Assembly: GCF_014396165.1 (NCBI RefSeq)
Contig: NZ_CP060715.1
Span: 1,590,001-1,622,000 of the forward strand
Direction: 5' to 3'
Source: Erysipelothrix inopinata
GTDB taxonomy: Bacteria > Bacillota_I > Bacilli_A > Erysipelotrichales > Erysipelotrichaceae
DNA length: 32,000 nucleotides
Made by a program: the position numbers and the translations under genes. How positions within the stretch are numbered: position 1 is the stretch's first letter; every line of letters starts with the position of its first letter. Below the pieces are notes generated by a model. That model made no database searches, had not been told where the DNA came from, and saw only the letters and a program-made list of their open reading frames with translations. This document shows positions 12,378 to 28,287 of the stretch, in pieces.

Positions 12378-13874
12378 GGCTCTTGAAAATCTAGTGTTGG
12401 TGAACTCCAATATTGATTTAGAGTCACGGCTCCATCACATTAATTTGTGGTGGAGCTTTTTATAATTGTAATGGTAACATTGTGTTGCTTATAAGTAAAA
12501 CTCTCGCTCTAAAATTTGTGAATGATCGATACCCGAATGCAATTCTCTTAATTACTTTTATTAAGTTATTAGTACCTTCTAATTTTCCGTTTGAGTATTC
12601 ATAAGTAAGTGCATTAAGTATCGATGTTTTATGATAGTTGAATGTATTGATTGTGGTTTGAATCGTCTTGGGTAGATGTTTGTAATTCTTGGATATTAAG
12701 TCTTCGAAATAGTCTATTTGCCTGTTATTGATAGAGAGCCGTATTCGCTGCATTAACCAATAACACTCTTCGAGTTCTTTTGAAGATCTCAAGAGTTCAT
12801 CGACGACCTGTTGTTCAGTCATAAGATGAGGGAAACACTTAAAGTGCTTATATTCTTTGTCATCTAAATCATCTTGAGTCATCATTAAGAGTTTCCAATA
12901 CTTCTTCAATTTAGAGTAGTATTGTTTATTCTCTTTCATAACTTGCGTCCTTACAGAGTTGAATGATCGATTAATAAGCTGAACGACATGGAATCTATCG
13001 GTAATTATTTTAGCGTTAGGGAAACAGGACTTTACGAGGTCGATATATCCTTTAAACATATCCATAGAAACAGTCTCTACTTGTTTTCTAACTTCAAGAG
13101 GGAATGAAAAGAAATAAGACTTGAGGAAACCAATATGACGATGCGTAAGGATATCCAGTATCTTACCTGTATCAGCGTCTGTAAAAATAAATGACATCTT
13201 ACCCTTAACCTCTTTAACTGACTTAAACTCATCGAAGGATAGGTTCTTGGGCAAGGAATTGTGAGGTTGAATAAACTTTGAATTGATATTTGTGATCCAA
13301 GAGTTAATGGTAGTGTGAGAGATATTATTACTCTTTGATATATCCCAAACAGAACGTTTTGTCTTAATTTCTAAAAGTACTTTATGATAGGTGTTCTTGG
13401 ATATGGAGCAGTTTTTATCAACTAGGTTTGTTTGAGAGATAAATGTATGCGAACACATCTTGCAGTAATAGCGTTGTTTTTTAAGTTTTAAGTAGGTTGT
13501 GAAATTAGAACACTTTGGAAGTTTAATTGTGACAGACTTAGTTCCGTTTTTAATAATAGAGTTATCTTGATTAATGCAACCACATTTTGTGCAATAATCG
13601 GGATGATCCGGAGAGTGTGTAGCGTATACAACGTGAGATAAAACTCCTTTTATGACTTCTTGTTGAACACTTTCATCTGAAAAATGTATGGATTTGTCTT
13701 TAATATTAAGTAAAATTCGTGTATTATTTTGATTGGACATAGATGATGGATCCCTTTCTCTGGTTGTGGTGACTTTAGTATAGAGGATTTACTTATCTAT
13801 GTCTTTTTTTATTATCTAAAATAAAAAAGTGTTGATGAGATAAATATCTCACCAACACCAGATTTTAAAGAACC
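12378..13874 (-). mobile_element. ISL3-family insertion sequence, copy 2 (1497 bp, inverted relative to copy 1)
   Basis: Same length and ends as copy 1. The non-coding ends and every stretch I compared by eye are identical. The flanking octamers differ (ATATTTAT vs GAAATAAT), so there is no TSD. Confidence 0.9.
12460..13740 (-). CDS. ISL3-family transposase (identical to 1668-2948)
   Basis: The 426-aa translation is identical residue for residue to that of copy 1. Confidence 0.9.
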   Translation of the reverse strand: MSNQNNTRILLNIKDKSIHFSDESVQQEVIKGVLSHVVYATHSPDHPDYCTKCGCINQDNSIIKNGTKSVTIKLPKCSNFTTYLKLKKQRYYCKMCSHTFISQTNLVDKNCSISKNTYHKVLLEIKTKRSVWDISKSNNISHTTINSWITNINSKFIQPHNSLPKNLSFDEFKSVKEVKGKMSFIFTDADTGKILDILTHRHIGFLKSYFFSFPLEVRKQVETVSMDMFKGYIDLVKSCFPNAKIITDRFHVVQLINRSFNSVRTQVMKENKQYYSKLKKYWKLLMMTQDDLDDKEYKHFKCFPHLMTEQQVVDELLRSSKELEECYWLMQRIRLSINNRQIDYFEDLISKNYKHLPKTIQTTINTFNYHKTSILNALTYEYSNGKLEGTNNLIKVIKRIAFGYRSFTNFRARVLLISNTMLPLQL

Positions 13875-14996
13875 GAAATAATCAATTCAACTATGTTATT
13901 TACTGATTGTATTTCTGAATTGGAAGATGTACATTTTTTTGTTGTTGCAGTTCCAACTCCAATAAACGAGGATAAAACCCCAAACTTAGATTTAGTAATT
14001 TCTGCTACCGAAATTGTAGCACCATACCTAAAAAGAAACTCTGTAGTAGTGTATGAATCTACAGTATATCCAGGAGTGACAGAGGATATATGTCTTCCTA
14101 TTCTCAAACAAAACTCTAATTTGAATTATCCTAACGATTTTTCTATTGGGTATTCTCCTGAAAGAATCAATCCTGGTGATAAATTACATAGATTGGAAAA
14201 TATTGTTAAAGTTGTAAGTGCAGATAATTCTGAAAGCTTGAATTTAGTATCCGAAATATATGGAGAAATTATAGAAGCTGGAATTTATAAGGCAACATCA
14301 ATCAAAGTTGCTGAAGCTGCAAAAGTAATTGAAAATAGTCAAAGGGATATTAATATTGCTTTTGTAAATGAGTTAGCTATGATTTTCGATAAATTAAATA
14401 TTAATACTAGTGAAGTGCTAGAAGCGGCATCTACAAAATGGAATTTCCTGAATTTCACTCCGGGTCTCGTCGGAGGGCACTGCATTGGTGTGGATCCCTA
14501 CTACTTAACTTACAGAGCTAATCAAGTAGGTTATGTATCTCAAATAATTACTGCAGGTAGGACAGTAAATGATGACATGGGTAAATATATAGCACAAAAG
14601 AGCATTAAGATGATGATTAATGACAAAAAATCTCTTTATGATTCCAAGGTTGCAATTTTGGGATTCACTTTTAAAGAGAACTGTGCAGATATCCGAAATA
14701 CCAGAGTAATTGATATTGTTAAGGAACTTAATGATTTTGGAGTAAATGTTGATATATTTGATCCGCTTGCAGATGCAGATGAAGTAGCGACACATTATGG
14801 GATCAAAGTTGTTAATAACCTTCCGTTTGCGGAAAGTATTAGCTATGATGTTGTAATCCTTGCGGTAAATCACTCTGAATATGTAGAAATGTCTTCTGAA
14901 AAATATGGCAAGCTTCTCAAAGATGATGCTATTGTTGTTGATGTTAAAAATGTGAAAAATGAATTGAGTAAATCATATAAATACTGGAGCTTATAA
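13875..14996 (+). pseudogene. 5'-truncated TviB/WbpO-family UDP-N-acetylhexosamine 6-dehydrogenase (about 60 N-terminal residues with the Rossmann GxGxxG missing)
   Basis: The frame is open from the IS boundary (EIINSTMLFTDCISELEDVHFFVVAVPTPINEDKTP...VVVYESTVYPGVTED...GYSPERINPGD). This aligns from about residue 60 of TviB-type enzymes. The NAD-binding N-terminus is absent, and the first ATG (13893) has no SD sequence. Confidence 0.8.
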
Positions 14997-15973
14997 TGGA
15001 AAATATTATTAAAAAATTAAATGAAAAACAGTTTAAATTCCTAATAACCGGTTGTGCTGGATTTATTGGATCAAACCTTGTCGAATTTCTTTTGTCTCAT
15101 AACCAAATTGTGATTGGAATTGATGATCTATCAAATGGATTGATAGAAAATATTCATGAACACATGGATAATCCTAACTTTGAATTTGTTGAAATGAATA
15201 TTTGTGATACAAATAATCTGGCCGATAAAATGGTTGGAATTGACTATGTTTTACACCAAGCTGCGTGGGGTAGCGTGCCTAGAAGTATGATTATGCCAGT
15301 TTTTTATGCTGAGCAGAACGTTATTGGAACTGTAAGTGTATTTGAGGCAGCGCGACTAAGTAAAGTAAAAAAAGTAGTGTATGCTTCTAGCTCATCTGTT
15401 TATGGTGACGAACCAAATTTGCCAAAAAAAGAAGGCATAGAAGGAAACTTACTGTCGCCTTATGCGCTTTCTAAGAAAATTGATGAATACTATGGGGAAT
15501 TCTACTCGAGAATATATAAACTCCCTACTGTAGGGTTAAGATATTTTAATGTTTTTGGTAGAAAACAAAATCCGAATTCACAGTATTCAGCTGTAATTCC
15601 TAAATTTATTAAAGCGATTCTCCAGAATGAACCTATTCAGGTGAATGGTGATGGAAATCAATCACGTGATTTCACTTATATTGACAATGTCATAGAAGCG
15701 AATTTGAAGTCGTGTTTCAGCGGTGATATTGCAAATGGTAAAGCATATAATATTGCATTTGGAGGAAGAGTTAGCTTGAATGAGCTCATTGACTCCTTAT
15801 TCATCACTATGAATAAAAAAACTTCCGTATCGTTTGGGGTTGATAGAGAAGGTGATATAAAGCATTCTAATGCTTCAATTGCAAGAGCGAAAACCGACTT
15901 GAATTATAACCCTCGATTCTCCTTTCAAGACGGACTTGAACTCACAATTAAGTGGTATATTGATAACCTTTAG
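14996..15973 (+). CDS. TviC/WbpP-like NAD-dependent UDP-GlcNAc(A) C4-epimerase (extended SDR)
   Basis: 325 aa with LITGCAGFIGSNL, HQAAWGSVPRS, YASSSSVYGD, SPYALSK, GLRYFNVFGRKQNPN, AVIPKF and GDGNQSRDFTYIDNV. The resemblance to WbpP/TviC is close. The start overlaps the upstream stop (TAATG). Confidence 0.85.
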   Translation: MENIIKKLNEKQFKFLITGCAGFIGSNLVEFLLSHNQIVIGIDDLSNGLIENIHEHMDNPNFEFVEMNICDTNNLADKMVGIDYVLHQAAWGSVPRSMIMPVFYAEQNVIGTVSVFEAARLSKVKKVVYASSSSVYGDEPNLPKKEGIEGNLLSPYALSKKIDEYYGEFYSRIYKLPTVGLRYFNVFGRKQNPNSQYSAVIPKFIKAILQNEPIQVNGDGNQSRDFTYIDNVIEANLKSCFSGDIANGKAYNIAFGGRVSLNELIDSLFITMNKKTSVSFGVDREGDIKHSNASIARAKTDLNYNPRFSFQDGLELTIKWYIDNL

Positions 15974-16145: not shown

Positions 16146-17489
16146 ATGAAAAAAAATTTAAAAAGTCTGACAATTCTTACATATAAGCTTGTTGTATATT
16201 ATTTGCTTTACACAATATTTTTCCAAATGTTTGAATTGTACAACGTTGGGCTTCAATATGTATCAAGAACAACTGTTATTACAACGATGACATTTGCAGT
16301 TATTTTGGTATTAATGGTGTTTGTGTATGGAAATTTCTCAATCGGAAAGCAAAAGAGTAAGCCAATTATTTTTTCAACTTCGATCGCAGTAGTGTTAACG
16401 GATATTGTAACCTATATTCAACTCATGATTATGAATACAAATCCTCATAATAATCAAACATTTAGAATCGAACAACTAGATATTTTGTTGTATGTGATTC
16501 TGATGCAAGTCGTTGTTATCACAATTGCTGCTTACGTAGGTAACTGGCTCTACTTTAAGTTATACACTGTGGAACATGTTTTAATCGTAAAATCATATGG
16601 ATCTGATGACGATACTTTGCGAAAAATACATCGTTATCTATCAAATTATAAATTACAGTACCGTGTCGTTGATGTTATTGATTATTCGAGAATTAACAGT
16701 TTTAATTTTAGTGATATTGATCGTGTTGTATGCGTAGGAATTCATAATGAAGAACGTTCATCCCTGACAGATTTTTGTTACAAGAATGGAATTTCAATTA
16801 GTTTCACACCTGAAGTTACTGATGTGGTTGAACTTGCTGGTGAACAGGTCGTTTATGATGATATTCCTCTTATTGTTGTGGAATCCAAAGGGCTATCATT
16901 TGAGCAAAAATTCTTTAAACGAACTCTTGATCTAATTTGTTCGATTTTTGGATTGATTCTATCATCGCCGATTTGGATCATCGCAGGAATCGCAATCAAA
17001 TTAAACGATGGCGGAAAGATTTTCTTTAGACAGGAACGATATACTGAGAACGGGAAAGTTTTCAAGGTATTTAAGTTCAGAACTATGAAAGAAAATGTTG
17101 CGAACTATTCATCGACAGAAAACGATGATCGTATTACTGCAGTCGGCAAGGTATTAAGAAAAACGAGAATGGATGAATTGCCTCAAATTCTCAATATAAT
17201 TAAAGGTGATATGAGTATGGTAGGGCCAAGACCAGAGATGTTGGAGAATGTTCACGAATATGAAAGTGATTTACCACAATTCCGATATAGATTAAAAGTT
17301 AAGGCCGGACTAACAGGAATTGCTCAAATCGAAGGAAAATACAATACGACCCCTAAAGATAAACTGATTATGGATTTAATGTATATCGAAAACTACAGTG
17401 TTTGGATGGATATTAAACTCATTCTAAGAACTGCGACTGTGCTAGTTAAAAAAGAAAGCACAGAAGGATTTGGTATCGAAATTAAATAA
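16146..17489 (+). CDS. Polyprenyl-phosphate glycosyl-1-phosphate transferase (priming PGT, Bac_transf/WbaP-CpsE type), copy A
   Basis: 447 aa counted from the ATG at 16146 (GAGGTG RBS). This start is equivalent to that of copy B; the track start is a GTG 6 nt upstream. It has N-terminal TM helices and a C-terminal catalytic domain (KRTLDL..., FRQERYTENGKVFKVFKFRTM, DELPQILNIIKGDMSMVGPRPE). Confidence 0.85.
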   Translation: MKKNLKSLTILTYKLVVYYLLYTIFFQMFELYNVGLQYVSRTTVITTMTFAVILVLMVFVYGNFSIGKQKSKPIIFSTSIAVVLTDIVTYIQLMIMNTNPHNNQTFRIEQLDILLYVILMQVVVITIAAYVGNWLYFKLYTVEHVLIVKSYGSDDDTLRKIHRYLSNYKLQYRVVDVIDYSRINSFNFSDIDRVVCVGIHNEERSSLTDFCYKNGISISFTPEVTDVVELAGEQVVYDDIPLIVVESKGLSFEQKFFKRTLDLICSIFGLILSSPIWIIAGIAIKLNDGGKIFFRQERYTENGKVFKVFKFRTMKENVANYSSTENDDRITAVGKVLRKTRMDELPQILNIIKGDMSMVGPRPEMLENVHEYESDLPQFRYRLKVKAGLTGIAQIEGKYNTTPKDKLIMDLMYIENYSVWMDIKLILRTATVLVKKESTEGFGIEIK

Positions 17490-17668
17490 TGTCGAAAGTC
17501 TTCATTAATAAATTTGATATGACAAATTGGAAAAATTGATAGTTCCTTTTCTTTGAGTCATGAGAGTAATAAAAAAATGAGAAAATACTATTTGATACTT
17601 ACAAGTAACTTTCTTTAAAAAATAATTTATAAATGAAACTCAAAAAGGTGAAAAATATAGGCTTGTCG

Positions 17669-17822
17669 TGGAACTTTTAGAGTGTCTCCAATATCGAGTG
17701 TAGGTGAACTCCAATATTGGTTTTTTGAGTCGCCGCTCCACTACATTAATTTGTAGTGGAGATTTTTATATTTGTAATGGAAACATTGTGCTGCCAATAA
17801 GTAAAACTCTTGCTCTAAATTA
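17669..17822 (-). mobile_element. Degraded remnant of a third ISL3 element (IRR end plus last ~17 transposase codons)
   Basis: 17696-17820 aligns by eye with 12392-12520 of copy 2 (GTGAACTCCAATATTG..., hairpin GCTCCAC..GTGGAGA, TTTGTAATGG.AACATTGTG...AAGTAAAACTCT.GCTCTAAA) with scattered substitutions. The reverse frame reads FRARVLLIGSTMFPLQI*. The boundaries are approximate. Confidence 0.7.
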
Positions 17823-17941
17823 ATTGTGCAAAAATAGTAATGACGATAGTTCACTTTCTAATAATTTTTGACAAAAACATTGTAAGTGAGTCGCCTTCTG
17901 TATTACATTATCTATTATATATAGTTATTATTACATGGTTA

Positions 17942-17969
17942 TTGCTTAAAAGCGTACTTGTGATATAAT
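17942..17969 (+). promoter_or_regulatory. Putative promoter of licCA-licB (extended -10)
   Basis: -35 TTGCTT (17942-17947), 16-nt spacer, TG-A-TATAAT (17961-17969), about 70 nt upstream of the ATG at 18040. Confidence 0.45.
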
Positions 17970-18039
17970 TATTCATTAGGTAACCATGTTTTTTTACAGC
18001 TAGAAAGATTGCTAAATAATCATAGGGGGTATTTTATTT

Positions 18040-19788
18040 ATGGTGAACAGTTTTGTAGTTCTGCGTGATATTATTGAAAATAACGCTCTTACGTTGAATG
18101 ATCTTTTAAGTAAGTTTGAATTTCCCGCTATTCAAGAACTAAGTAATTCAAATTTAATCGAAGAATCAAAAGGTGTTGTATCTGTGACGGAGGAAGGGCT
18201 CGCTAAAATGAAGCCTTTCAAAGTCGATAATGCAATCATAATGGCTGCAGGTATGGGGTCTCGTTTTGTACCATATTCATACTACATACCAAAAGGGTTA
18301 ATTGAGGTGAATGATGTTCCTTTGGTTGAACGTCAAATTATTCAGTTCCGTGATGCAGGTATTGAAAACATTTACATCATTGTTGGATATATGGGGAAAC
18401 AATTCGAATATCTCGCAAAAAAATATGATGTTAAAATTATTCAGAATTTAGATTTCGCAACTAAAAATAACATATCGAGTTTATATTATGCAAACAAAGA
18501 AGGAATACTTGGTAACTCCTATTTAACGCCTTCTGATATTTATATTGAGGATAATGTATTTCATCAATATGAATATCATTCTTGGTATGCGACGAAGTAT
18601 TTTGAGGGAAAAGTTTCAGAGTGGGGTATTGAATGTGATGATACCGGACTGATAAACAATGTTTCTAAGTCTGCTGTGAATCAAGAAGCGATGTATGGTA
18701 CTGCATTTCTTTCGAAATCATTTACAAAAGTTTTGGCTGAAAAGATTGTGGATTTATACGAGGATGAATCATTTTCTCAGTGGTATTGGGAAGATGTTTA
18801 TATTAAATTTATGAATGAATTACGTTTATATTCCAATCTTAGTGCTGGTGAATCGGTATTAGAGTTTGAATGCTATGAGGAGTTGCGTGAATTTGATACG
18901 AGTTATTGTAAAAATGCTAGAAACCCGCTCTTAGATATTATCTGTAAAGAGTTAGATTGCTCACTGAGTGATATTCACGGTATTACTCCGCTAAAAGTTG
19001 GTATGACTAATGATTCCTTCAAATTCACTGTGAAGGATGCAGATTATGTCTTCCGTGTGGCTGGAGAAGGTACTGATGTCCTCATTGATAGATATGCTGA
19101 AGCTAAATCATATGAAGCAATTCAGCATTTAAACATATCGGATGAAATCATATATTTTGATCCTAAGAAAGGAATCAAAATTGCTAAGTATATAAAAAAT
19201 GCAAAACAATTCACTGAAGAAGATATAGAAGTGATGATTGGAACAATTCGAAAGCTTCATGAATCGGATATTGAAGTCGAACATAAATTTGATGTCAATG
19301 AAAGAATTGAATATTATTTTAATCTTTGTGAGAGTAATGAAGCAAAATATTATCCGGGATTACTTGATCATTATGACAAAATTCGAGAAATTAGAGATTA
19401 TGTCGATGCTAATCATAACGAGCTATGTTTTTGCCACATAGATCCTATTGTTCTTAACTTTGTGTGGTCAGATGACAAACATCATCTTCTTGATTGGGAA
19501 TACTCTGCAATTTCTGATCCATACTTGGACCTAGCGATGATTGTGCTATTCTCTTATTTGCCTGTAAATGAAACTGATGAGCTTTTAAGATTGTATCTTG
19601 AAGAGGAACCTAATGAGTATCAAAATGCGTTGTTATATGCATACTGCTCGCTCGTAGGGGTACTGTGGGCATTGTGGACTCAGTACAAAGAAACACGTGG
19701 AGAAACTTATGGAACATACGGTATTGATCAATTTAAATGGTCAGAACTATACTATGATGAGTTTGTGAAAGTAACGAAGGTGGGATAA
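18040..19788 (+). CDS. licCA: Fused CTP:phosphocholine cytidylyltransferase (LicC) and choline kinase (LicA) with an extra ~60-aa N-terminal wHTH-like domain
   Basis: 582 aa. Residues ~63-290 are a nucleotidyltransferase (AIIMAAGMGSRF, KGLIEV). Residues ~295-582 are an APH/choline-kinase fold (GMTNDSFKF, CHIDPIVLNF = HxDxxxxN, LLDWEYSAISDPYLDLA). Residues 1-60 are a separate small helical domain. Confidence 0.8.
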   Translation: MVNSFVVLRDIIENNALTLNDLLSKFEFPAIQELSNSNLIEESKGVVSVTEEGLAKMKPFKVDNAIIMAAGMGSRFVPYSYYIPKGLIEVNDVPLVERQIIQFRDAGIENIYIIVGYMGKQFEYLAKKYDVKIIQNLDFATKNNISSLYYANKEGILGNSYLTPSDIYIEDNVFHQYEYHSWYATKYFEGKVSEWGIECDDTGLINNVSKSAVNQEAMYGTAFLSKSFTKVLAEKIVDLYEDESFSQWYWEDVYIKFMNELRLYSNLSAGESVLEFECYEELREFDTSYCKNARNPLLDIICKELDCSLSDIHGITPLKVGMTNDSFKFTVKDADYVFRVAGEGTDVLIDRYAEAKSYEAIQHLNISDEIIYFDPKKGIKIAKYIKNAKQFTEEDIEVMIGTIRKLHESDIEVEHKFDVNERIEYYFNLCESNEAKYYPGLLDHYDKIREIRDYVDANHNELCFCHIDPIVLNFVWSDDKHHLLDWEYSAISDPYLDLAMIVLFSYLPVNETDELLRLYLEEEPNEYQNALLYAYCSLVGVLWALWTQYKETRGETYGTYGIDQFKWSELYYDEFVKVTKVG

Positions 19789-19792
19789 ATCA

Positions 19793-20755
19793 ATGGAAAC
19801 TAAAAACGGGAGTATCGTTGGACTTTTATCAGGAGTTTTCTGGGGTTTGGATTCAGTGTTACTTGGAGTTGTGCTTTCAAGTGTGATCTTTATGTCACTT
19901 GGAGATAATGGCTCACTATATTCAACCTTTATTCATGATAGTGCTTCATTTGTATTGTTATTTGTCTTAATTGCTGTTAGAGGCAAAATTAAAGATTTTA
20001 CAAAAGTGTTGTTTTCAAAGTCGGGAGCGATTATTGCGTGTGCTGCCTTATTGGGTGGCCCAATCGGAATGGGATCGTATATTATTTCAATTAAGTACCT
20101 GGGTTCGTCAATGGCTGCGGGTATATCTGCAGTTTACCCGATTTTCGGATTAATATTAGGATACCTACTATTCAAGGAAAAATTATCAAAACAAGGAATT
20201 GTTGGGGTTATTCTCGCGGTATCTGCAATTGTCATGATGAGCATCAGTGGTATCGGTGTTATTGATAACCTTGGAGTTGGTTTGCTGGCTGCAATAGGCT
20301 GTGTTGTGGGATGGGGAAGTGAAGCGGTTATCGTAGGCGTTGCATTGAAAGAAGATGTAAGTGCAGAAATCGCTCTTGGTATCCGTCAAATGGTATCAGG
20401 TTTAACTTATGGTTTGATAATTGTTCCATTCCTTGGGTATGAGGGGGTTATGCAAATCTTTGGTAACGGAAATCTTGTGATGCTGTTAATCGGTGCTGGA
20501 GTTGTAGGAACTATTTCTTATCTTTGCTACTACAAAGCAATTGGTATGATTGGAGCGGGTCGTGCAATGGGACTCAATATCTCCTATCCTGCATGGGCTT
20601 TCCTATTTCAATTAATTTTAACTCGTGACTTTGATGCTTTACATTTCATTTTAGTACTTGTAATTATTCTAGGTTCGATTCTAACTTCAGACAATCCTGA
20701 AGAACTTCTACCATTCTTAAAGTATTTCACGAAGAAAGAAATCGATGAAGTCTGA
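19793..20755 (+). CDS. licB: EamA/DMT-family permease, LicB-like putative choline transporter
   Basis: 320-aa protein with about 10 TM helices and two EamA-like halves. It lies immediately downstream of licCA (4-nt gap, RBS AAGGTGGG). Confidence 0.65.
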   Translation: METKNGSIVGLLSGVFWGLDSVLLGVVLSSVIFMSLGDNGSLYSTFIHDSASFVLLFVLIAVRGKIKDFTKVLFSKSGAIIACAALLGGPIGMGSYIISIKYLGSSMAAGISAVYPIFGLILGYLLFKEKLSKQGIVGVILAVSAIVMMSISGIGVIDNLGVGLLAAIGCVVGWGSEAVIVGVALKEDVSAEIALGIRQMVSGLTYGLIIVPFLGYEGVMQIFGNGNLVMLLIGAGVVGTISYLCYYKAIGMIGAGRAMGLNISYPAWAFLFQLILTRDFDALHFILVLVIILGSILTSDNPEELLPFLKYFTKKEIDEV

Positions 20756-20795
20756 TTTTTTTAAATGTATTACTTCGTGTGATTTTTCTCATAAA

Positions 20796-20837
20796 CCTCT
20801 CTTTAATGCCATATTTTGTTTATTAAAGAGGGGTTTT
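20796..20837 (+). terminator. Rho-independent terminator after the licB-like gene
   Basis: CCTCTCTTTAAT-14 nt loop-ATTAAAGAGGGG (12-bp stem with one G-U pair) followed by TTTT. Confidence 0.7.
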
Positions 20838-20908
20838 ATGCTATCATAATAGAAGGCCAAAATATTAATTTTTGAGCGGTCTTTTTTACTAACTGGAGAT
20901 TTTAAAAA

Positions 20909-22252
20909 ATGAAAAATAATTTAAAAAGTCTGACAATTCTTTTATACAAGCTCGTTGTGTATTATTTACTTTACACAGTATTTTTCCAAATGTTTGAATT
21001 ACACAACGTTGGGCTTCAATATGTATCAAGGACAACTGTTATTACAACGATGACCTTTGCAGTCATTTTGGTATTAATGGTATTTGTCTATGGAAATTTC
21101 TCAATAGGGAAGCAGAAGAGTAAACCAATTATCTTTTCAACGACGATTGCTGTAGTGTTAACGGATATTGTAACCTATATTCAACTCATGGTTATGAATA
21201 CAAATCCACATAATAATCAAACATTTAGAATCGAACAACTAGATATTCTGTTGTATGTAATTCTTATGCAAGTCATTATTATTTCAATCGCTGCTTACGT
21301 CGGGAACTGGCTCTACTTTAAGCTATATACTGCGGAGCATGTTTTAATCGTAAAATCCTATGAATCAGATGATGATACTTTACGAAAAATACATCGATAT
21401 CTATCGAATTACAAATTACAATACCGAGTCGTTGATGTCATTGATTATTCAAAAATAAACAGTTTTAATTTTAGTGATATTGATCGCGTTGTATGTGTAG
21501 GAATTCATAATGAAGAACGTTCATTCCTGACAGATTTCTGTTACAAAAACGGCATATCAATTAGTTTTACCCCTGAGATTACTGACGTAGTCGAGCTGGC
21601 TGGTGAACAAGTTGTTTATGATGATATTCCACTGATTGTTGTGGAGTCCAAAGGACTATCATTTGAACAGAAATTCTTTAAACGAATTCTTGATCTGATT
21701 TGCTCTATTTTAGGATTGATTTTATCATCGCCGATTTGGATTATCGCAGGAATTGCAATCAAATTAAACGATGGCGGTAAGATTTTCTTCAGACAGGAAC
21801 GTTATACTGAGAACGGTAAAGTTTTCAAGGTATTTAAGTTCAGAACGATGAAAGAAAATGTTGAAAACTATTCCTCAACTGAAAATGATGATCGAATTAC
21901 TGCAGTAGGTAAGGTATTAAGAAAAACACGAATGGATGAGTTACCTCAAATATTGAATATTATCAAAGGTGATATGAGTATGGTAGGACCGCGTCCTGAG
22001 ATGCTTGAAAATGTTCATCAATATGAGAGTGATTTACCACAATTCCGTTACCGACTTAAAGTTAAAGCTGGTTTAACGGGTATAGCTCAAATCGAAGGAA
22101 AATACAATACAACCCCTAAAGATAAACTGATTATGGATTTAATGTATATCGAAAACTACAGTATTTGGATGGATATTAAACTCATTCTAAGAACGGCGAC
22201 TGTATTGGTTAAAAAAGAAAGTACAGAAGGATTTAACACAGAATCAAAATAA
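20909..22252 (+). CDS. Polyprenyl-phosphate glycosyl-1-phosphate transferase (priming PGT), copy B
   Basis: 447 aa, the same length as copy A. My manual alignment gives 22 substitutions, and the last five residues differ. RBS GGAG. Confidence 0.85.
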   Translation: MKNNLKSLTILLYKLVVYYLLYTVFFQMFELHNVGLQYVSRTTVITTMTFAVILVLMVFVYGNFSIGKQKSKPIIFSTTIAVVLTDIVTYIQLMVMNTNPHNNQTFRIEQLDILLYVILMQVIIISIAAYVGNWLYFKLYTAEHVLIVKSYESDDDTLRKIHRYLSNYKLQYRVVDVIDYSKINSFNFSDIDRVVCVGIHNEERSFLTDFCYKNGISISFTPEITDVVELAGEQVVYDDIPLIVVESKGLSFEQKFFKRILDLICSILGLILSSPIWIIAGIAIKLNDGGKIFFRQERYTENGKVFKVFKFRTMKENVENYSSTENDDRITAVGKVLRKTRMDELPQILNIIKGDMSMVGPRPEMLENVHQYESDLPQFRYRLKVKAGLTGIAQIEGKYNTTPKDKLIMDLMYIENYSIWMDIKLILRTATVLVKKESTEGFNTESK

Positions 22253-22278
22253 ATTAAGTATACAAGGAGGAAATTTGT

Positions 22279-23295
22279 ATGTTTGAAAATTCAGTATTCG
22301 TAGTAACTGGTGGAACGGGTTCATTTGGACACGCCGTTGTAAGAAGATTTTTGAAAGAAGATGTTAAAGAAATTCGTATTGTTTCTAGAGATGAAAAGAA
22401 ACAAGATGACATGAGAAAAGAATTTAATGATGACCGTCTCAAATTTTATATCGGAGATGTTCGTGATCGTAGTACACTAACACATGCAATGAGAGGAGCA
22501 GATTACTTGTTCCATGCTGCGGCACTTAAACAAGTTCCTTCATGTGAGTTTTTCCCAATTGAAGCAGTTAAAACTAATGTAATTGGAACTGATAACGTTC
22601 TTGAAGAAGCAATTCATGCAGGTGTTAAAAAAGTTGTATGTCTATCTACAGATAAAGCAGCATATCCAATTAACGCTATGGGAATTTCAAAGGCGATGAT
22701 GGAAAAAACATTTGTTGCAAAAGCACGATTGGCACAATCAACAGGGACGACAATTTGTGGAACACGTTATGGTAATGTTATGGCCTCTCGAGGATCTGTA
22801 ATTCCATTGTTTTTTGATCAAATCCGTGAAGGAAAGCCATTAACTTTGACAAATCCTAAAATGACACGATTCTTAATGTCATTGGATGAGGCAGTAGATT
22901 TAGTTTTATTTGCATTTGAGAATGCTCAACCTGGTGATATATTTGTCCAAAAATCACCAGCAAGTACTATTGATGATTTAGCAGAAGCAGTTCAAAATGT
23001 TGCAGGTGTTCATACAGGTACTCGCTTGATTGGAACACGTCATGGTGAAAAAGTATACGAAACACTATTAACTAAAGAAGAATTTGTTAAATCAGAAGAT
23101 CTTGGTGGCTATTTCCGAGTTCCTATGGATCAACGTGATTTAAACTATGACAAGTATTTTGTTGAAGGAGAAGAGCAAGAAGGATTAGACGAATATAATT
23201 CACATAATACTTATCGCTTATCAGTTCCTGAAATAGAAGAAAAACTACGCTCCTTATACGAAATTCAAGAAGATTTGAAAGAATTTAATTCATGA
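22279..23295 (+). CDS. fnlA: UDP-GlcNAc 4,6-dehydratase/5-epimerase (CapE/FnlA/WbjB type)
   Basis: 338 aa. The N-terminus VFVVTGGTGSFGHAVVRRFL...EIRIVSRDEKKQDDMRKEF...KFYIGDVRD closely resembles CapE. Strong RBS AAGGAGG. Confidence 0.9.
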   Translation: MFENSVFVVTGGTGSFGHAVVRRFLKEDVKEIRIVSRDEKKQDDMRKEFNDDRLKFYIGDVRDRSTLTHAMRGADYLFHAAALKQVPSCEFFPIEAVKTNVIGTDNVLEEAIHAGVKKVVCLSTDKAAYPINAMGISKAMMEKTFVAKARLAQSTGTTICGTRYGNVMASRGSVIPLFFDQIREGKPLTLTNPKMTRFLMSLDEAVDLVLFAFENAQPGDIFVQKSPASTIDDLAEAVQNVAGVHTGTRLIGTRHGEKVYETLLTKEEFVKSEDLGGYFRVPMDQRDLNYDKYFVEGEEQEGLDEYNSHNTYRLSVPEIEEKLRSLYEIQEDLKEFNS

Positions 23296-24407
23296 ATATT
23301 CTCGTGACAGGAGCCTCAGGCTTTGTAGGTAAAAATCTATGTAGTCAACTTCATAATCTTGGTTATGAAGTTTTTAAATATGATAAGTCGGATACTTTAG
23401 AAACATTATCCGCATATACTAAATCTTGTGATTTTGTAGTCCATCTCGCTGGTGTAAATCGACCTACAAATCCCGAAGATTTTTTTTCGGGAAACAGAGG
23501 ATTTACAGAAACACTATGTGACTTGCTTCACCAACATAATAATAAAGCTCCAATTGCTATTTCAAGCAGCATCCAAGCTGAGTTAGATAATGATTATGGT
23601 GTAAGTAAGAGAGAGGGTGAAAGCATTCTCTTGGATCATTCACGCAAGAATAATTCAGAAGTATATATATACCGCTTTTCTAACTTGTTTGGTAAATGGT
23701 GCAAGCCATTCTACAACTCAGTGGTTGCTACGTGGTGCCACTCAATTGCTCGTGGAGAAGACATTCAAATTAATAATGAAAACGCAGAGCTTACTTTGGA
23801 ATACATTGACGATGTTGTGAATGAACTTGTAAGGTGCATAAATGGAAAGCCTAATTTTAAAAATGTAGAAGAAAGATTATGCTCAGTTCCAATTAATGAA
23901 AAAGTCACCTTAGGAGAATTGGCGAAATTAATCCAATCATTTAAAGCATCAAGAACTTCTCTTCTTATACCCAATATGGGAGATGAGTTTACAAAAAAAT
24001 TGTATAGTACTTACCTTAGTTATTTACCAACTGATGAGTTTTCATATAATTTAAATTCTCATGTCGATAATCGCGGTAGTTTCACCGAAATCTTAAAAAC
24101 GATTGATAGAGGCCAAGTGAGCCTCAATATATCCAAGCCTGGAATTACTAAAGGTCAACATTGGCATCACACAAAAAATGAAAAATTCTTGGTAGTTTCC
24201 GGACAAGGCAAAATTCAATTTAGAGATATATTTTCTCAAGAAATAATTGAATACGAGGTTACTGGTGATATATTACAAGTGGTTGATATTCCCGTAGGCT
24301 ATACACACAATATAATTAATACAGGTGAAAATGATTTAATCACAATCATGTGGGTAAATGAAATATTTGATCAAGATAATCCTGATACATATTACTTGGA
24401 GGTATAA
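23292..24407 (+). CDS. fnlB: UDP-2-acetamido-2,6-dideoxy-L-talose-forming reductase (CapF/FnlB/WbjC type; SDR + C-terminal cupin)
   Basis: 371 aa with an N-terminal ILVTGASGFVGKNL Rossmann motif and a C-terminal cupin (RGSFTE...GQHWHHTKNEKF). ATGA start/stop overlap with fnlA. Confidence 0.85.
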   Translation: MNILVTGASGFVGKNLCSQLHNLGYEVFKYDKSDTLETLSAYTKSCDFVVHLAGVNRPTNPEDFFSGNRGFTETLCDLLHQHNNKAPIAISSSIQAELDNDYGVSKREGESILLDHSRKNNSEVYIYRFSNLFGKWCKPFYNSVVATWCHSIARGEDIQINNENAELTLEYIDDVVNELVRCINGKPNFKNVEERLCSVPINEKVTLGELAKLIQSFKASRTSLLIPNMGDEFTKKLYSTYLSYLPTDEFSYNLNSHVDNRGSFTEILKTIDRGQVSLNISKPGITKGQHWHHTKNEKFLVVSGQGKIQFRDIFSQEIIEYEVTGDILQVVDIPVGYTHNIINTGENDLITIMWVNEIFDQDNPDTYYLEV

Positions 24408-25538
24408 ATGAAAAAATTAAAAGTTATGACCGTCGTCGGAACTCGACCGGAAATTATTCGCTTATCAGCTGTGATTCAACGCCTTGAATCATCAGAAGCT
24501 ATTGAGCATATCCTTGTTCATACAGGACAAAATTATGACTATGAACTTAACGAGGTGTTCTTCGAAGATTTCAAACTAAGAAAGCCTGACTTTTTCCTCA
24601 ATACTGCGACAGGAGCACCAATCGGAACAATTGGCAATATTTTAATTAATATTGAACCAGTTCTAAATGAAGTGCAACCAGATGCATTTTTAGTGTTGGG
24701 AGATACAAACTCTTGCTTGTGTGCAATTGCAGCGAAGAGAATGCATATACCAGTGTTCCATATGGAAGCTGGAAACCGTTGCTTTGATCAACGAGTGCCA
24801 GAAGAAACTAACCGAAAGATTGTTGATCATATTTCCGACATTAATCTTACATATAGTGATATTGCTCGAGAATATCTCCTAAGAGAAGGCATTCCTGCTG
24901 ATCGCGTTATTAAGACAGGTAGTCCGATGTTTGAAGTAATTAATTTGAGAAGAGAGGATATCGAAAATAATACTATTGTTGAGGCTATGAATCTTGTTAG
25001 AGGCAAGTATTTTGTAGTTTCCGCTCATCGTGATGAAAATATCAATTCAGAACGTAACTTTATGAATCTTGTGGATAGTTTGAATGAGATTGCAAAGGTT
25101 TACGATATGCCTGTAATTGTAAGTACTCATCCTCGTACAATGAAAATGATTGAATCACGAGGTGTATCTTTTGATTCAAGGGTTCAAATACTCAAACCAA
25201 TGGGATTTAATGATTATGTTGCACTTCAGGTAAATTCTAAAGCAACTCTAAGTGATTCAGGTACAATTAGTGAAGAGTCATCAATTCTAGGTTTTAATGC
25301 ATTGAATCTGCGTGAAGCACATGAACGTCCAGAAGCAATGGAAGAAGCTTCCGTTATGATGGTTGGGCTTGAAAAAGAAAGAATTCTTCAAGGTCTAGCC
25401 GTTCTTGAAACGCAGGATAAGAATACACTTCGTCATGTTGCTGACTATTCCATGCCAAATGTTTCAGAAAAAGTGCTACGTATTATTATATCTTATACAG
25501 ATTACATCAATCGAAATGTGTGGAAAAAAGTGAGTTAA
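24408..25538 (+). CDS. fnlC: UDP-N-acetylglucosamine/UDP-L-RhaNAc 2-epimerase, non-hydrolysing (CapG/FnlC/WbjD type)
   Basis: 376 aa with KVMTVVGTRPEIIRLS, VLGDTNS and HMEAGNRCFD motifs. It follows fnlB directly (RBS GGAGG). Confidence 0.9.
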   Translation: MKKLKVMTVVGTRPEIIRLSAVIQRLESSEAIEHILVHTGQNYDYELNEVFFEDFKLRKPDFFLNTATGAPIGTIGNILINIEPVLNEVQPDAFLVLGDTNSCLCAIAAKRMHIPVFHMEAGNRCFDQRVPEETNRKIVDHISDINLTYSDIAREYLLREGIPADRVIKTGSPMFEVINLRREDIENNTIVEAMNLVRGKYFVVSAHRDENINSERNFMNLVDSLNEIAKVYDMPVIVSTHPRTMKMIESRGVSFDSRVQILKPMGFNDYVALQVNSKATLSDSGTISEESSILGFNALNLREAHERPEAMEEASVMMVGLEKERILQGLAVLETQDKNTLRHVADYSMPNVSEKVLRIIISYTDYINRNVWKKVS

Positions 25539-25642
25539 GCTTTTTAACGACAAAAATTACGTTTTATTTGTAGATACTGTATAATAGTGTTTGATATTAG
25601 TTAAAATTTAAAAATGTGGTAACCATAAGCTTTGGAGGAAAT

Positions 25643-27148
25643 ATGAAAAAAATTACTATCGTTATGATGTTACTTTCTGTGTGCTCGAAATTTTTAGGAT
25701 TTGCACGAGAAATTGTATTGTCAAAAACCTATGGCGCATCAATTGTTTCCGATGCGTTCTTATACTCATATAGTTTACCTGCGACACTATTCTCAGTTAT
25801 TATTGCAGCGTTTGTGACAGGGTTTATTCCGATGTATACTCGGATTAAAAATGAAGACGGATCTGAAAAAGCAGTTCTCTTCGCAAATAACGTTCAAAAT
25901 GTAATGGTAGTCATTGCATTGGTATTTGGACTGATTTTCGTAACATTTACAGACGTATTTTTAGGTATGTTGGTTCCTTCAGCTTCACCTGAATTATTAG
26001 GATACTTGATTCCATTTACTCAGGTAACTATTTTTACGTTGATTTTCACATGTATTGTTCAAATAATGACAGGATTTTTAAATATTCATGAAAGCTTTAT
26101 TTTTCCTTTAGCTTTATCATTTCCTTTAAATATAATACTAATCGCAACAGTACTTATTTCAAAACAAACGTCTGAATTTATCATGCCATTTGGTATTCTC
26201 TTTGCTTATTTTGTTCAAGCGGCACTAATATTGTGGTATGCAAATCGTAAGGGATTCAAGATTAGTTTCAAGATTAATCTTAAAGATCCAAATTTAAAAG
26301 CAATGCTTGTTCTTGCTATTCCTCTAATTATTGGATCAGCAACTACAAGTATTGGTACCGTTGTAAACCAAGCACTTGCTTCAGGAATTGACGGTGGTAT
26401 TTCTCAAATAACCTATGCTGCTAAGATAGGTGGTATTGTAGAAGGCGTATTTGGCCTGGCGATTATTTCAGTAATGTATCCTGCATTATCAAAGGCAGTT
26501 TCAATTGGTAATATGGAGGATGCTTCTAGGGAGTTTGAATCGGCATTATCGTCATTACTCTTCTTTATTGTTCCTTGTGCGATTGGTATGGCAGTTCTTG
26601 CAAAACCAATTGTTCAATTTATTTATATGCGTGGTGAGTTCGGAATGGAAGAAGTGTTAGTTCTGACACCAATTTTTAGAGCATACAGTTTAGGTCTTGT
26701 AGGATTTTCAGCGTATGGTCTTCTTGCAAGAGTTTTCTACTCATTCCAAGATACTAAGACGCCAATGTACACATCTATACTTTTAATCGGAACTCAAATC
26801 ATTTTAGGATTATTATTATCTAACCGTATGGGCTTGCATGGGATTACGCTAGCTATGACGATTGCTAATGCTATTGGAAGTATTATTCTATTAGTTCTTT
26901 CGTTTAGAAAATTTGAAAACTTTAATTATAAAAAGCTTCTAACAGAAGTCATAAAGATATTTGTGGCAGGACTTTTAATGGGCTTTGTTGCATATGTGAT
27001 TTATGGATTTGTTGGAAATCGCTTTGGAAATACAATGTCCTTACTCTCAGCAATTGGTGCAGGAGTCATTGTTTATTTTGCAATGGTATATATTTTAAAA
27101 ATTAATGTTCTTGTTGAATTTATAGGACAAATAAAGAACAAAAAATAG
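25643..27148 (+). CDS. MurJ/MviN-family (MOP superfamily) flippase, probable repeat-unit flippase of this locus
   Basis: 501 aa counted from the ATG at 25643 (GGAGG 5 nt upstream). The protein is polytopic, and the N-terminus SKFLGFAREIVLSKTYGASIVSDAFLYSYSLPATLF is MurJ-like. Confidence 0.75.
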   Translation: MKKITIVMMLLSVCSKFLGFAREIVLSKTYGASIVSDAFLYSYSLPATLFSVIIAAFVTGFIPMYTRIKNEDGSEKAVLFANNVQNVMVVIALVFGLIFVTFTDVFLGMLVPSASPELLGYLIPFTQVTIFTLIFTCIVQIMTGFLNIHESFIFPLALSFPLNIILIATVLISKQTSEFIMPFGILFAYFVQAALILWYANRKGFKISFKINLKDPNLKAMLVLAIPLIIGSATTSIGTVVNQALASGIDGGISQITYAAKIGGIVEGVFGLAIISVMYPALSKAVSIGNMEDASREFESALSSLLFFIVPCAIGMAVLAKPIVQFIYMRGEFGMEEVLVLTPIFRAYSLGLVGFSAYGLLARVFYSFQDTKTPMYTSILLIGTQIILGLLLSNRMGLHGITLAMTIANAIGSIILLVLSFRKFENFNYKKLLTEVIKIFVAGLLMGFVAYVIYGFVGNRFGNTMSLLSAIGAGVIVYFAMVYILKINVLVEFIGQIKNKK

Positions 27149-27171
27149 TTTAACTTTAGAAGGAGATTCAT

Positions 27172-28287
27172 ATGAAAATTCTAATTTACGGAATGAGTGA
27201 GCAAAGAGGTGGAGTAGAAACTTTTATTTATAATTTCTATTCAAATTTTTCAGATGATGTTCAATGTGATTTTGTTACTGATTTCGCGTCAATTCCATTT
27301 GAAGATGAATTTGTAAGTAAAGGGTCAAGGATCTTTAAATTACCCAGTCGCCGTAAAAATCTAATTGCTTACAATAAATATCTAGATAGATTATTCACTG
27401 AGAATAAGTATGATATTGTTTGGGCTAATGTGTGTACATTAAGTTCAATCGGTGTTCTTTCTTATGCGAAAAAATATGGAGTTCCGGTGAGAATTGTTCA
27501 TAGTCATAATTCAGAGAATATGGGTGGCAAAGTTACAGCATTGCTTCATGGCATGAATCTCAAGAAAATTAAGAATGTAGCAACTGATTTCTGGGCTTGC
27601 TCTCCTGAAGCAGGGGAATGGATGTTTGGAGAAGTCATTGAGACTGAGAAAGTAAAAGTAATTCGAAATGCTATTGATCTCGATAAATTCTCATATTCTT
27701 TAGATATTCGTCAACAAGTTAGAAATGAATTGAATGTCGATAATGAATTTGTTATCGGTCATGTAGGACGATTCCATCCTCAAAAAAATCAAAAGTTTTT
27801 ACTTGATATTTTTAAAGAAATTGTAGCCTTAAAAGATAATTCAAGATTAGTGATGGTCGGTTCTGGTTCTCTTCAAGAAGAAATTGAAAGTTATGCGAAA
27901 GAATTAAATGTTTATGATAAGGTTTTATGGTTAGGGCAAAGATCAGATGTTGAAAGACTTCTTCAAGGATTTGATGTATTCCTTTTGCCATCTGCTTACG
28001 AAGGGCTTCCGTTTGTATTGGTTGAGTCTCAAGCTGCAGCATTACCTTCATATACGACACTTGGAAAGGTTAGCAAGGAATCTAAAATATCAGATTGCTT
28101 AGAATTTGTTGACCTCAATCTTGGTGCAAAGCATTGGGCAACGTTAATTGTAAACAATGCCGATTTACCTAGAGAAAACAATACTGAAGCTTTACGTGCT
28201 ACTGGATTTGATATAGTTACAGAATCCAGAGATATTGAAAAATTCCTTAAAATGAGAGTTGATAGTAAGAATGATGATAAAAAATAA
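27172..28287 (+). CDS. GT4-family (Glycos_transf_1) glycosyltransferase
   Basis: 371 aa with GHVGRFHPQKN and LLPSAYEGLPFVLVESQAAALP (EX7E motif). RBS GAAGGAG. Confidence 0.8.
   Translation: MKILIYGMSEQRGGVETFIYNFYSNFSDDVQCDFVTDFASIPFEDEFVSKGSRIFKLPSRRKNLIAYNKYLDRLFTENKYDIVWANVCTLSSIGVLSYAKKYGVPVRIVHSHNSENMGGKVTALLHGMNLKKIKNVATDFWACSPEAGEWMFGEVIETEKVKVIRNAIDLDKFSYSLDIRQQVRNELNVDNEFVIGHVGRFHPQKNQKFLLDIFKEIVALKDNSRLVMVGSGSLQEEIESYAKELNVYDKVLWLGQRSDVERLLQGFDVFLLPSAYEGLPFVLVESQAAALPSYTTLGKVSKESKISDCLEFVDLNLGAKHWATLIVNNADLPRENNTEALRATGFDIVTESRDIEKFLKMRVDSKNDDKK

Follow-up and report, generated by a model that had tools for sequence, protein, structure and literature searches.

Large monotopic phosphoglycosyl transferases of the WbaP/CpsE/WcaJ type combine a C-terminal catalytic Bac_transf domain, in which DE and PRP motifs are found, with an extended N-terminal part made up of membrane and accessory regions, and are encoded at the start or the end of Wzx/Wzy-type loci. 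The Lic pathway of Streptococcus pneumoniae and Haemophilus influenzae comprises LicA, LicB, LicC and LicD, and the phase variation of lic1 in H. influenzae runs through tetranucleotide repeats. The capsule of Erysipelothrix rhusiopathiae carries phosphocholine (Shi et al. 2012, as cited in PMC10434233), and a serovar-determining polysaccharide region is described for E. rhusiopathiae and E. tonsillarum (Ogawa et al. 2018, as cited in PMC7641416 and PMC7083082).

The window, the whole 32,000-nt stretch of E. inopinata DNA analysed here, contains two transferases of this type, PT_A and PT_B, each of 447 residues (Table 1), for which the coordinates, length and domain assignment in the earlier note all agree with the present analysis. 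The 6.1-kb feature that they delimit is probably a seam between two neighbouring surface-glycan gene clusters, an IS-truncated relic ending in PT_A and an intact choline locus to which PT_B belongs. A pair of 95%-identical transferases only 3.4 kb apart sets the window apart from WbaP/CpsE/WcaJ-type systems.

Table 1. Features of the window, with coordinates, strand and supporting matches.
Feature	Coordinates	Strand	Evidence
ISL3-family IS copy 1 (transposase 1668-2948), context only	1534..3030	+	PF01610 DDE_Tnp_ISL3 E=8e-56
ISL3 copy 2, cuts upstream polysaccharide locus	12378..13874	-	identical to copy 1, inverted
tviB-like UDP-GlcNAc 6-dehydrogenase pseudogene, 5'-truncated	13875..14996	+	NCBIfam TviB and Pfam profiles
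tviC-like UDP-GlcNAcA 4-epimerase gene, intact	14996..15973	+	NF011728 TviC E=1.6e-88, below curated cut-off
PT_A, large Bac_transf priming phosphoglycosyl transferase, QNN60275.1	16146..17489	+	PF02397 210 bits
ISL3 right-end scar, 140 bp: terminal repeat and last ~18 transposase codons	17680..17819	-	alignment to intact IS
Promoter-like site before licCA, TTTACA-16-AATAAT, 10/12 consensus matches	17993..18020	+	consensus match only
licCA, fused CTP:phosphocholine cytidylyltransferase and choline kinase	18040..19788	+	PDB and Pfam matches
licB, choline transporter (EamA/DMT)	19793..20755	+	PDB 7B0K LicB, full length, E=1.2e-42; PF00892
PT_B, large Bac_transf priming transferase, QNN60278.1	20909..22252	+	PF02397 212 bits
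fnlA-fnlB-fnlC-like genes (UDP-L-FucNAc-type pathway)	22279..25538	+	TIGR04130, NF047837, TIGR00236
MurJ/MOP-family flippase	25616..27148	+	PF03023 E=1.4e-66
Three GT4 glycosyltransferase genes	27172..30491	+	PF00534 and PF13439
EpsG-family putative polymerase	30491..31567	+	PF14897 E=4e-42

The Bac_transf match covers residues 258–434 in both proteins (cut-off 27 bits), while TIGR03025 (cut-off 295.55) gives 301.4 bits for PT_B and, slightly below the cut-off, 293.1 bits for PT_A. PT_B matches the WbaP structure 8T53 (E=2e-36), and the DELPQ, GPRP and KFRTM motifs are all intact in PT_A. Unlike true WbaP and WcaJ, both score well below the equivalog cut-offs of these enzymes, so that the scores point to no particular transferred sugar. 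Direct comparison of the genes gives 148 differences in 1344 nucleotides (89.0% identity) and, as had been counted by hand, 22 amino acid substitutions and no indels (~95% protein identity). Fourteen of these lie in residues 1–257, five in the 177-residue catalytic domain, which makes the earlier description of that half as almost invariant a fair one, and three in the last five residues; the C-terminal ends do differ (GIEIK versus NTESK), but at three positions and not at all five. The abundance of synonymous changes was also borne out, with 114 codons differing synonymously and 22 non-synonymously (dS 0.61, pairwise dN/dS about 0.05). This divergence indicates that PT_A and PT_B are old relatives and not a recent copy. 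Their similarity stops at the borders of the open reading frames, the flanks matching at chance level, and the differences are evenly spread, with no long conversion tracts; at eight places the copies are identical over 28 nt or more, the longest such run being 51 nt. A repeat search recovered the reported direct repeat with its 4763-nt spacing, and alignments and structure matches confirmed that the sequence between the copies holds only the ISL3 end scar, licCA and licB.

Such an arrangement could in principle come from a mis-joined or expanded repeat, and related short-read contigs do break near the copies: one (L094) starts at 22165, right after the 51-nt run, and two (L002 and L083) inside licCA. 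However, the copies differ at 148 sites, and sequences only 89% identical do not collapse. An independent assembly, GCA_965139835.1 (L001), matches this 13.7 kb, both copies included, at 99.97% identity; there, one 89-kb contig runs from the truncated tviB to the flippase. Both proteins are listed by NCBI as separate records from two assemblies. An assembly artefact, which the earlier note had already dismissed, is thus hardly credible.

PT_A is the final gene of a tviB-tviC-PT module. Profile matches on the tviB-like pseudogene begin at profile position 67–69; relative to a 435-residue E. tonsillarum homologue the first 62 residues are absent, including the GLGYVG NAD-binding (Rossmann) motif, and the rest is 86% identical. 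The homology begins exactly at the boundary of ISL3 copy 2. The two ISL3 copies are identical (1497/1497); copy 1 has imperfect inverted repeats at its ends and is flanked on each side by an 8-bp target duplication, CTTTTTTA, while no target-site duplication is present at the flanks of copy 2 (ATATTTAT versus GAAATAAT), whose left side adjoins a 42-nt remnant of an older IS end (12336–12377). Insertion of this copy and an adjacent deletion would have removed everything upstream of tviB codon 63.

The tviC product is 83–88% identical to that of the same-position gene in three related loci (L085, L086 and L090). The order tviB-tviC-PT closes polysaccharide loci in E. tonsillarum and E. rhusiopathiae assemblies, where unrelated genes (Mem_trans, 2-Hacid_dh) follow, and positions 13875–17471 of the window are collinear with this module at 75–80% nucleotide identity; the PT homologues of the two species are 73–82% identical. 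The relic locus contains no glycosyltransferase, flippase or polymerase genes. What is left of it would be a tviB that no longer functions, a tviC that is intact, and PT_A, likewise intact but orphaned and now presumably redundant, although with its intact catalytic motifs and a dN/dS to PT_B of 0.047 PT_A may still be in use and so be more than a relic.

PT_B is the first biosynthetic gene of an intact locus headed by licCA-licB. The matches of the fnl genes to TIGR04130 FnlA (E=1e-151) and the NF047837 WbcJ-type reductase (E=3e-125) fall below the curated cut-offs, and that to TIGR00236 WecB (E=9e-71) lies above its cut-off. The flippase, glycosyltransferases and putative polymerase are followed, past the end of the window, by a GT4 gene, an EpsG-like gene, licD, an LtaS-like sulfatase gene, another GT4 gene and a second licD, as read from contig L094, which is 100% identical to the window over 22165–32000. 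The gene content suggests that this locus most likely makes a phosphocholine-decorated polymer. With PT_A collinear with an end module and PT_B heading a separate complete locus, the suggestion that two cps loci had been joined agrees well with the data.

In the licCA product, residues 56–286 match LicC (PDB 1JYK, E=5e-30) and residues 320–566 match LicA (PDB 4R77, E=1.5e-27), in line with the Pfam NTP_transf_3 and Choline_kinase matches. Promoter-like sites such as that preceding licCA are in total not above shuffle expectation across the region. The gene is 96–97% identical at the nucleotide level in three relatives (L002, L083 and L095), and the block from licCA-licB through PT_B, fnlABC and the flippase to the glycosyltransferases is 96–97% identical in L002, L083, L084 and L095. 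The more distant L097 has retained a 3' remnant of licB upstream of its PT, and therefore the licB-PT adjacency is older than the split between PT_A and PT_B. Because licCA-licB, PT_B and fnlABC form one block, L097 keeps this remnant and licD genes lie downstream, the gene order indicates that the lic genes are part of the PT_B locus. In E. tonsillarum DSM 14972 a licCA-like gene likewise lies within the PT-fnlABC locus, adjoining anmK.

The scar between PT_A and licCA is about 87% identical to 12386–12513 of the intact ISL3, including the degenerate terminal inverted repeat; its outer terminus faces PT_A and its licCA side is cut off. A hairpin with a T-run inside it (17736–17761) scores as terminator-like on the + strand. 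The scar borders the left edge of the lic genes, which some relatives possess and others (L096 and L097) lack, and the earlier note had considered an IS-associated mobile cassette, made up of licCA-licB and a priming transferase of its own, spliced into an existing cps locus. This is very unlikely: the licCA-licB-PT_B-fnlABC block is of uniform identity in relatives, with the lic genes consistently placed at the head of the fnl locus, the licD genes that need CDP-choline belong to the downstream part of that locus, the lic genes and PT are not bracketed by another IS end or by a target duplication, and the L097 remnant points to an old vertical association. Moreover, L095, which can be read across the junction, has neither the scar nor PT_A, and carries a different, tagD/tagF-like upstream cluster with a small 240-residue Bac_transf protein 42% identical to PT. 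The 550-bp PT_A-licCA junction has no counterpart in any relative compared; for several relatives the contig does not extend past licCA into the upstream region.

A look at the neighbours of the two copies and a tree with their homologues had both been proposed earlier. PT_B is 99.1–99.6% identical at the protein level in L083, L084 and L095 and 97.5% in L096, in each case with fnlABC after it; a PT_A-type gene was found, among the genomes sampled, only in E. inopinata and GCA_965139835.1. In the tree PT_A falls outside the PT_B clade in 100% of bootstraps and joins this clade before L097, also in 100%; dS between the copies exceeds by far the values within the PT_B clade (at most 0.185). PT_A and PT_B are thus the closest relatives of each other outside the PT_B clade and are both intact under purifying selection, as expected if an ancient in-situ tandem duplication in the E. 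inopinata lineage had left licCA-licB between two copies kept under selection, other strains later losing copy A when the upstream locus was replaced. A three-site patch at gene positions 1164–1173, common to PT_A, L095 and L096 but not to PT_B and L097, may be the trace of old gene conversion between copies that shared a genome. Such a duplication is nevertheless unlikely, since no flanks are duplicated, PT_A keeps the outgroup tviC-PT synteny, the licB-PT adjacency already exists in L097, which branched before the split, no other sampled genome has both copies, and the long co-residence that it supposes has left no long conversion tracts.

It was also proposed that RecA could act on the two copies as direct repeats and delete licCA-licB, which would leave phosphocholine-negative variants with a single chimeric transferase. 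The direct orientation and lack of indels would keep every crossover in frame, the identical runs offer sites for exchange, and apart from the lic genes there is no intact gene in between. Recombination, however, drops log-linearly with divergence, and 11% divergence is expected to cut it by orders of magnitude. No 5'-A/3'-B chimera occurs among six related PT genes; in L096, which lacks lic genes, PT is B-type over its whole length and is preceded by a distinct spacer, only 71% similar, and therefore lic was lost by another route or was never there. Being a one-way gene loss, the event would not be a switch. Such a deletion is formally possible, but looks inefficient and is highly improbable as an explanation of the layout.

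The seam reading draws on the anatomy, homology, synteny in relatives, divergence and truncations described above, and the direction and order of events can be suggested from them. PT_A most likely arrived with, or stayed in, a tviB-tviC-PT module whose source was another, diverged lineage of Erysipelothrix; no lineage with a PT_A-type gene in an intact module was found among the sampled genomes, and the donor is therefore hypothetical. An IS insertion, followed by a deletion leaving the 140-bp IS end, would then have brought PT_A beside licCA. The layout would thus be an ordinary mosaic polysaccharide locus, a footprint of locus shuffling, and would not amount to a novel type of switch.

The window encodes clear homologues of LicC, LicA and LicB, and the same locus has two LicD-family genes further along. 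In contrast to the described Lic pathway, LicC and LicA are fused in a 582-residue protein with an extra N-terminus of ~60 residues, which in the E. tonsillarum homologue shows a winged-helix match, and the genes are split across the locus, with licCA-licB placed before the priming transferase and licD a long way after it. Nothing comparable to the tetranucleotide repeats of H. influenzae lic1 was seen in the window.

The region is probably equivalent to the serovar-determining region of E. rhusiopathiae and E. tonsillarum, with which it shares the tviB-tviC-PT end module, and the E. tonsillarum DSM 14972 locus adjoins the same PTS-mupG-rpiR-murQ-anmK genes. The upstream cluster of L095 (tagD, glycerophosphotransferase, epsG and small sugar transferase) resembles the gene list of serovars 1 and 2 as it appears in PMC7641416. 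In contrast to the E. rhusiopathiae and E. tonsillarum loci examined, the E. inopinata module is a truncated relic, after which comes another, complete locus whose priming transferase is nearly identical.

Streptococcal cps loci, those of S. pneumoniae among them, are reportedly mosaic as well, IS elements and relic genes occurring where their modules meet (for example Bentley et al. 2006). The window resembles them in its adjacent or replaced modules, in joints marked by IS copies and scars, in the truncation of sugar-nucleotide genes and in intact genes left without partners, but differs in that the gene left over here encodes the priming transferase, which is closely paralogous to the initiator of the active locus.

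The two large Bac_transf priming transferases of the locus, PT_A and PT_B, were confirmed by ORF listing and direct comparison as 447-residue proteins whose genes start 4763 nt apart, and the earlier manual count of 22 substitutions and no indels between them was exact. At the DNA level 148 of 1344 nucleotides differ (89% identity), and the many synonymous changes noted earlier amount to 114 codons that differ only synonymously. The differences are evenly distributed over the gene, with 6-17 per 100 nt, and the Nei-Gojobori estimates are dN 0.028 and dS 0.61 (dN/dS 0.047). The similarity is confined to the ORF, ending at its borders in the direct comparison. The layout is real, as had been supposed, and not an assembly artefact, since a second assembly of the same region (GCA_965139835.1) bears both copies on a single contig at 99.97% identity. 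Over 13.7 kb the two assemblies differ at four places, all of them in the AT-rich spacer between PT_A and licCA (window 17490-18039, second assembly 3735-4285); sequencing errors may account for these, or junk DNA that changes fast.

Both proteins match PF02397 at residues 258-434, PT_A with 209.9 bits and PT_B with 212.2 bits, above the gathering score (cut-off used, 27 bits). Both also cover approximately positions 5-443 of the 445 of TIGR03025 (EPS_sugtrans), where PT_B reaches 301.4 bits, above the curated cut-off of 295.55, and PT_A, with 293.1, is slightly under it; their scores against the WbaP and WcaJ equivalog models are far under the respective cut-offs. The motifs DELPQ at residue 343 and GPRP at residue 360, which correspond to the catalytic Asp-Glu dyad and the PRP motif of PglC and WbaP, are kept in both proteins, and none of the 22 substitutions hits either of them. 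A caution for annotation is that two 95%-identical transferases need not mean two polymers.

Gene order and coordinates of the features, with the continuation past the window end read from relative contig L094
Feature	Position in window	Strand	Description
LCP gene	36-1499		CpsA/LCP-family glycopolymer ligase, far left
IS copy 1	1534-3030	+	ISL3 element
C26 peptidase			follows IS copy 1
Amino-acid permease	3846-5233		frameshifted
PTS-mupG-PTS-rpiR-murQ-anmK			MurNAc catabolic genes
Older ISL3-type remnant	12336-12377		42-nt left end, abutting IS copy 2
IS copy 2	12378-13874	-	inverted relative to copy 1
dtviB	13875-14996		5'-truncated tviB-like gene
tviC			between dtviB and PT_A
PT_A	16146-17489		exactly QNN60275.1/WP_187533405.1 (E. 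inopinata)
IS scar	~17680-17819		one end of an ISL3 element
licCA	18040-19788		582-aa LicC-LicA fusion
licB	19793-20755		LicB choline transporter match
PT_B	20909-22252		exactly QNN60278.1/WP_187533408.1 (E. inopinata)
fnlA-like gene	22265-23300 (range compared with relatives)		first gene of fnlABC
Remainder of fnlABC, MurJ-type flippase, three GT4 genes, EpsG-like polymerase			follow in this order
GT4, EpsG-like gene, licD, LtaS-like sulfatase, GT4, second licD	past window end (L094)		licD genes ~3 and ~7 kb beyond window end

As the earlier note had read it, the interval between the two transferases holds the scar of an ISL3 end, licCA and licB, the latter two recognized by matches to PDB entries. 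The single licCA protein matches LicC-type 1JYK over residues 56-286 (E=4.9e-30) and LicA-type 4R77 over residues 320-566 (E=1.5e-27), and licB matches the choline transporter 7B0K over residues 1-295 (E=1.2e-42). The two licD genes encode PF04991 proteins of 283 and 281 aa; the contig they were read from, L094, shows 100% identity over window 22165-32000. The LicC-LicA fusion possesses an additional N-terminus of ~60 residues (window 18040-18220), which in the E. tonsillarum homologue (L003, 18873-20618) gives a weak winged-helix match to PF24409 (E=6e-6, slightly below the gathering score) and also to PF13412, a hint that a regulator may be fused to the enzyme here.

The cpsA-like LCP gene might suggest a streptococcal cps locus, a reading rejected because synteny and protein names point to Erysipelothrix. 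Genes of the cpsBCD type for chain length or a kinase were not seen within the window, and IS copy 1 together with the MurNAc catabolic genes stands between the LCP gene and the glycan loci. The permease gene consists of two overlapping ORFs of 196 and 266 aa, corresponding to profile halves 2-178 and 189-405, and is probably a frameshifted pseudogene. An Rfam scan of the window gave no matches, promoter and terminator scans found promoter-like sites there at a frequency no more than chance, and GC and GC3 do not distinguish the modules.

Outside the E. inopinata clade the nearest homologues of the transferases are one of E. tonsillarum at 82% and two of E. rhusiopathiae at 75% and 73%. The nine contigs read from these two species all have the order ...GTs-epsG-fnlA-like-tviB(435 aa)-tviC(325 aa)-PT, and in the seven that extend past PT the genes 3' of it are unrelated. 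Their tviB-tviC-PT genes run collinearly with window 13875-17471, the nucleotide identity being 75-80%. In the window, homology to tviB starts precisely where IS copy 2 stops, and dtviB is without its first 62 codons, the GLGYVG NAD-binding motif included. As tviB is cut at this point, and IS copy 2 lies against an older remnant and is not flanked by a target-site duplication, the remainder of the PT_A cluster appears to have been removed by an IS-associated deletion. PT_A is consequently the final gene of a truncated cluster that lacks glycosyltransferase, flippase and polymerase genes, and dtviB-tviC-PT_A should be annotated as a truncated relic module. The fnlA-like gene that stands directly 5' of tviB in these species is 83-84% identical to that of the window at the nucleotide level (L085 5727-6749, L086 5587-6623, L090 5752-6786), whereas tviB-tviC-PT next to it reach 74-80%; the higher value may reflect stronger constraint or exchange.

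The transposase of the IS belongs to the ISL3 type (PF01610, DDE_Tnp_ISL3, E=8e-56), and of the first 26 positions of the terminal inverted repeats 23 agree. Copies 1 and 2 are identical at 1497 of 1497 positions; copy 1 has a clean 8-bp target duplication, CTTTTTTA. The remnant beside copy 2 is ~10% diverged and indicates repeated IS hits at the same spot. The scar is ~87% identical to the right end of the intact IS and has a degenerate terminal repeat, with its outer terminus facing PT_A and its licCA side cut off. The two intact copies flank a 9.3-kb segment running from the C26 peptidase to anmK, and recombination between them could invert this MurNAc-utilisation segment. A composite transposon carrying PTS-mupG-murQ-anmK was considered and rejected, because in E. 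tonsillarum these genes already form the native left flank, and because a target duplication belongs to IS copy 1 by itself; the copies were inserted independently.

The neighbours of PT_B are of another kind. The remaining members of PT_B's 90% cluster are all B-type. Three relatives' loci (L002, L083 and L084) show the order (licCA-)licB-PT-fnlABC... at 97% nucleotide identity to the window. A fourth, L095, carries the same block from the start of licCA onward (97%) behind another upstream cluster, GT4-epsG-tagD-GT2-tagF-like-small Bac_transf-epimerase-acyltransferase. As L095 has neither the IS scar nor PT_A, the proposal that an IS cassette brought in its own priming transferase is not upheld. 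The other proposal, that two cps loci were fused, is upheld, with PT_A ending a truncated tviB-tviC-PT cluster and PT_B heading a separate locus.

Further relatives vary upstream of the large transferase. L096 has yet another upstream cluster and no lic genes, its homology beginning at the PT start with a spacer that is 71% similar, while in L097 (PT 85% identical in nucleotides) a small Bac_transf gene, a 3' remnant of licB and PT follow in order. In this Erysipelothrix MAG lineage (L097 1242-1590, also L098 and L099) all that is left of licB 5' of the large PT is its final ~197 bp, and licCA-licB was therefore lost there by deletion. The small Bac_transf genes of L095 and L097 are not truncated copies of PT_A, since their identity to PT_A and PT_B is no more than 42%. 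The PTS...anmK block of E. tonsillarum DSM 14972 lies directly 5' of a PT-epsG-GT4-fnlABC-GT4-licCA-like locus; the anmK-side segment is therefore native flank, and loci of this family normally include lic genes. These contexts point to a clade design in which a variable upstream cluster ending in its own priming transferase is followed by licCA-licB or what remains of it, and then by a large PT with which the downstream cluster begins. All that sets the type strain apart is the close relationship between the transferase of its upstream cluster and that of the downstream cluster.

The age of the pair was addressed with a neighbour-joining tree from a codon alignment (200 bootstraps) of PT_A, PT_B and the genes of L083, L084, L095, L096 and L097. 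A clade of PT_B with L083, L084, L095 and L096 excludes PT_A in 100% of bootstraps, and PT_A joins this clade before L097, likewise in 100%. The dS of 0.61 between PT_A and PT_B compares with at most 0.185 within the PT_B clade and ~1.1 to L097. This distance, together with the even spread of differences, rules out a recent duplication, and the earlier statement that the pair is not a very recent in-situ duplication agrees also with the placement of PT_A outside the PT_B clade. The data fit PT_A being an allele of a diverged lineage, imported with or kept in the tviB-tviC-PT module. No PT_A-type donor lineage was found by a metagenome-contig scan (best 51%), a genome-collection scan (best 57-58%) or a protein homologue search, so that a single transferase gene may instead have been duplicated in situ long ago. 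At gene positions 1164-1173 (window 17309-17318 and 22072-22081) three sites within 10 nt are common to PT_A, L095 and L096 and absent from PT_B, L083, L084 and L097, which hints at past exchange of A- and B-type sequence, perhaps by micro gene conversion or inter-strain recombination. For the seam, an IS could have inserted downstream of PT_A, after which a deletion would have run to just upstream of licCA; the cut licCA side of the scar and the 550-bp PT_A-licCA junction, which has no counterpart in the relatives, are consistent with these steps.

The earlier note had further proposed that a crossover between the copies would remove licCA-licB and act as an OFF switch. The first part of this reasoning holds, and any crossover would be in frame owing to the lack of indels. 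The repeat is 11% diverged with a longest identical run of 51 nt, and is not a near-identical direct repeat suited to frequent recombination. No 5'-A/3'-B chimera was found among the related PT genes of L083, L084, L095, L096 and L097, and the junction in the lic-less L096 differs from that of the window, so that the absence of lic genes was reached by another route. The outcome of recombination would be irreversible loss and not switching, and a deletion OFF switch is speculative and unlikely, though rare deletions may occur. It is also highly improbable that PT_A is kept as a second initiator, either for initiation independent of the lic-PT_B operon or as the upstream partner of PT_B in rare in-frame crossovers that would excise licCA-licB, yielding phosphocholine-negative, antigenically altered variants; if true, the pair would be a one-way surface-variation device made of diverged paralogues.

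A literature search found no published description of the E. inopinata locus. IS-bordered relic modules are commonplace at the edges of streptococcal capsule loci, and the E. inopinata locus is an ordinary mosaic glycan locus, whose PT_A/PT_B seam opens no new mechanism. Glycan modules that can replace one another, every one equipped with a priming transferase, occupy the region adjacent to anmK; one of these modules is headed by the choline genes, which are an integral part of it but can be lost. Serotyping and vaccine work on Erysipelothrix gains from this further evidence that variation, that of the phosphocholine genes included, is driven by the replacement of modules and by deletions due to IS elements, and not by dedicated switches.

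According to passages in PMC7641416 and PMC7083082 citing earlier work, E. rhusiopathiae has a known serovar-defining polysaccharide region, and its capsule carries phosphocholine, as cited in a passage of PMC10434233. The tviB-tviC-PT module of the window is collinear with assemblies of E. rhusiopathiae and E. tonsillarum, and E. tonsillarum DSM 14972 has the anmK-side flank in common with the window; this synteny suggests a possible equivalence to the serovar region. The E. inopinata locus takes its place among Erysipelothrix surface-antigen loci of the kind already known.
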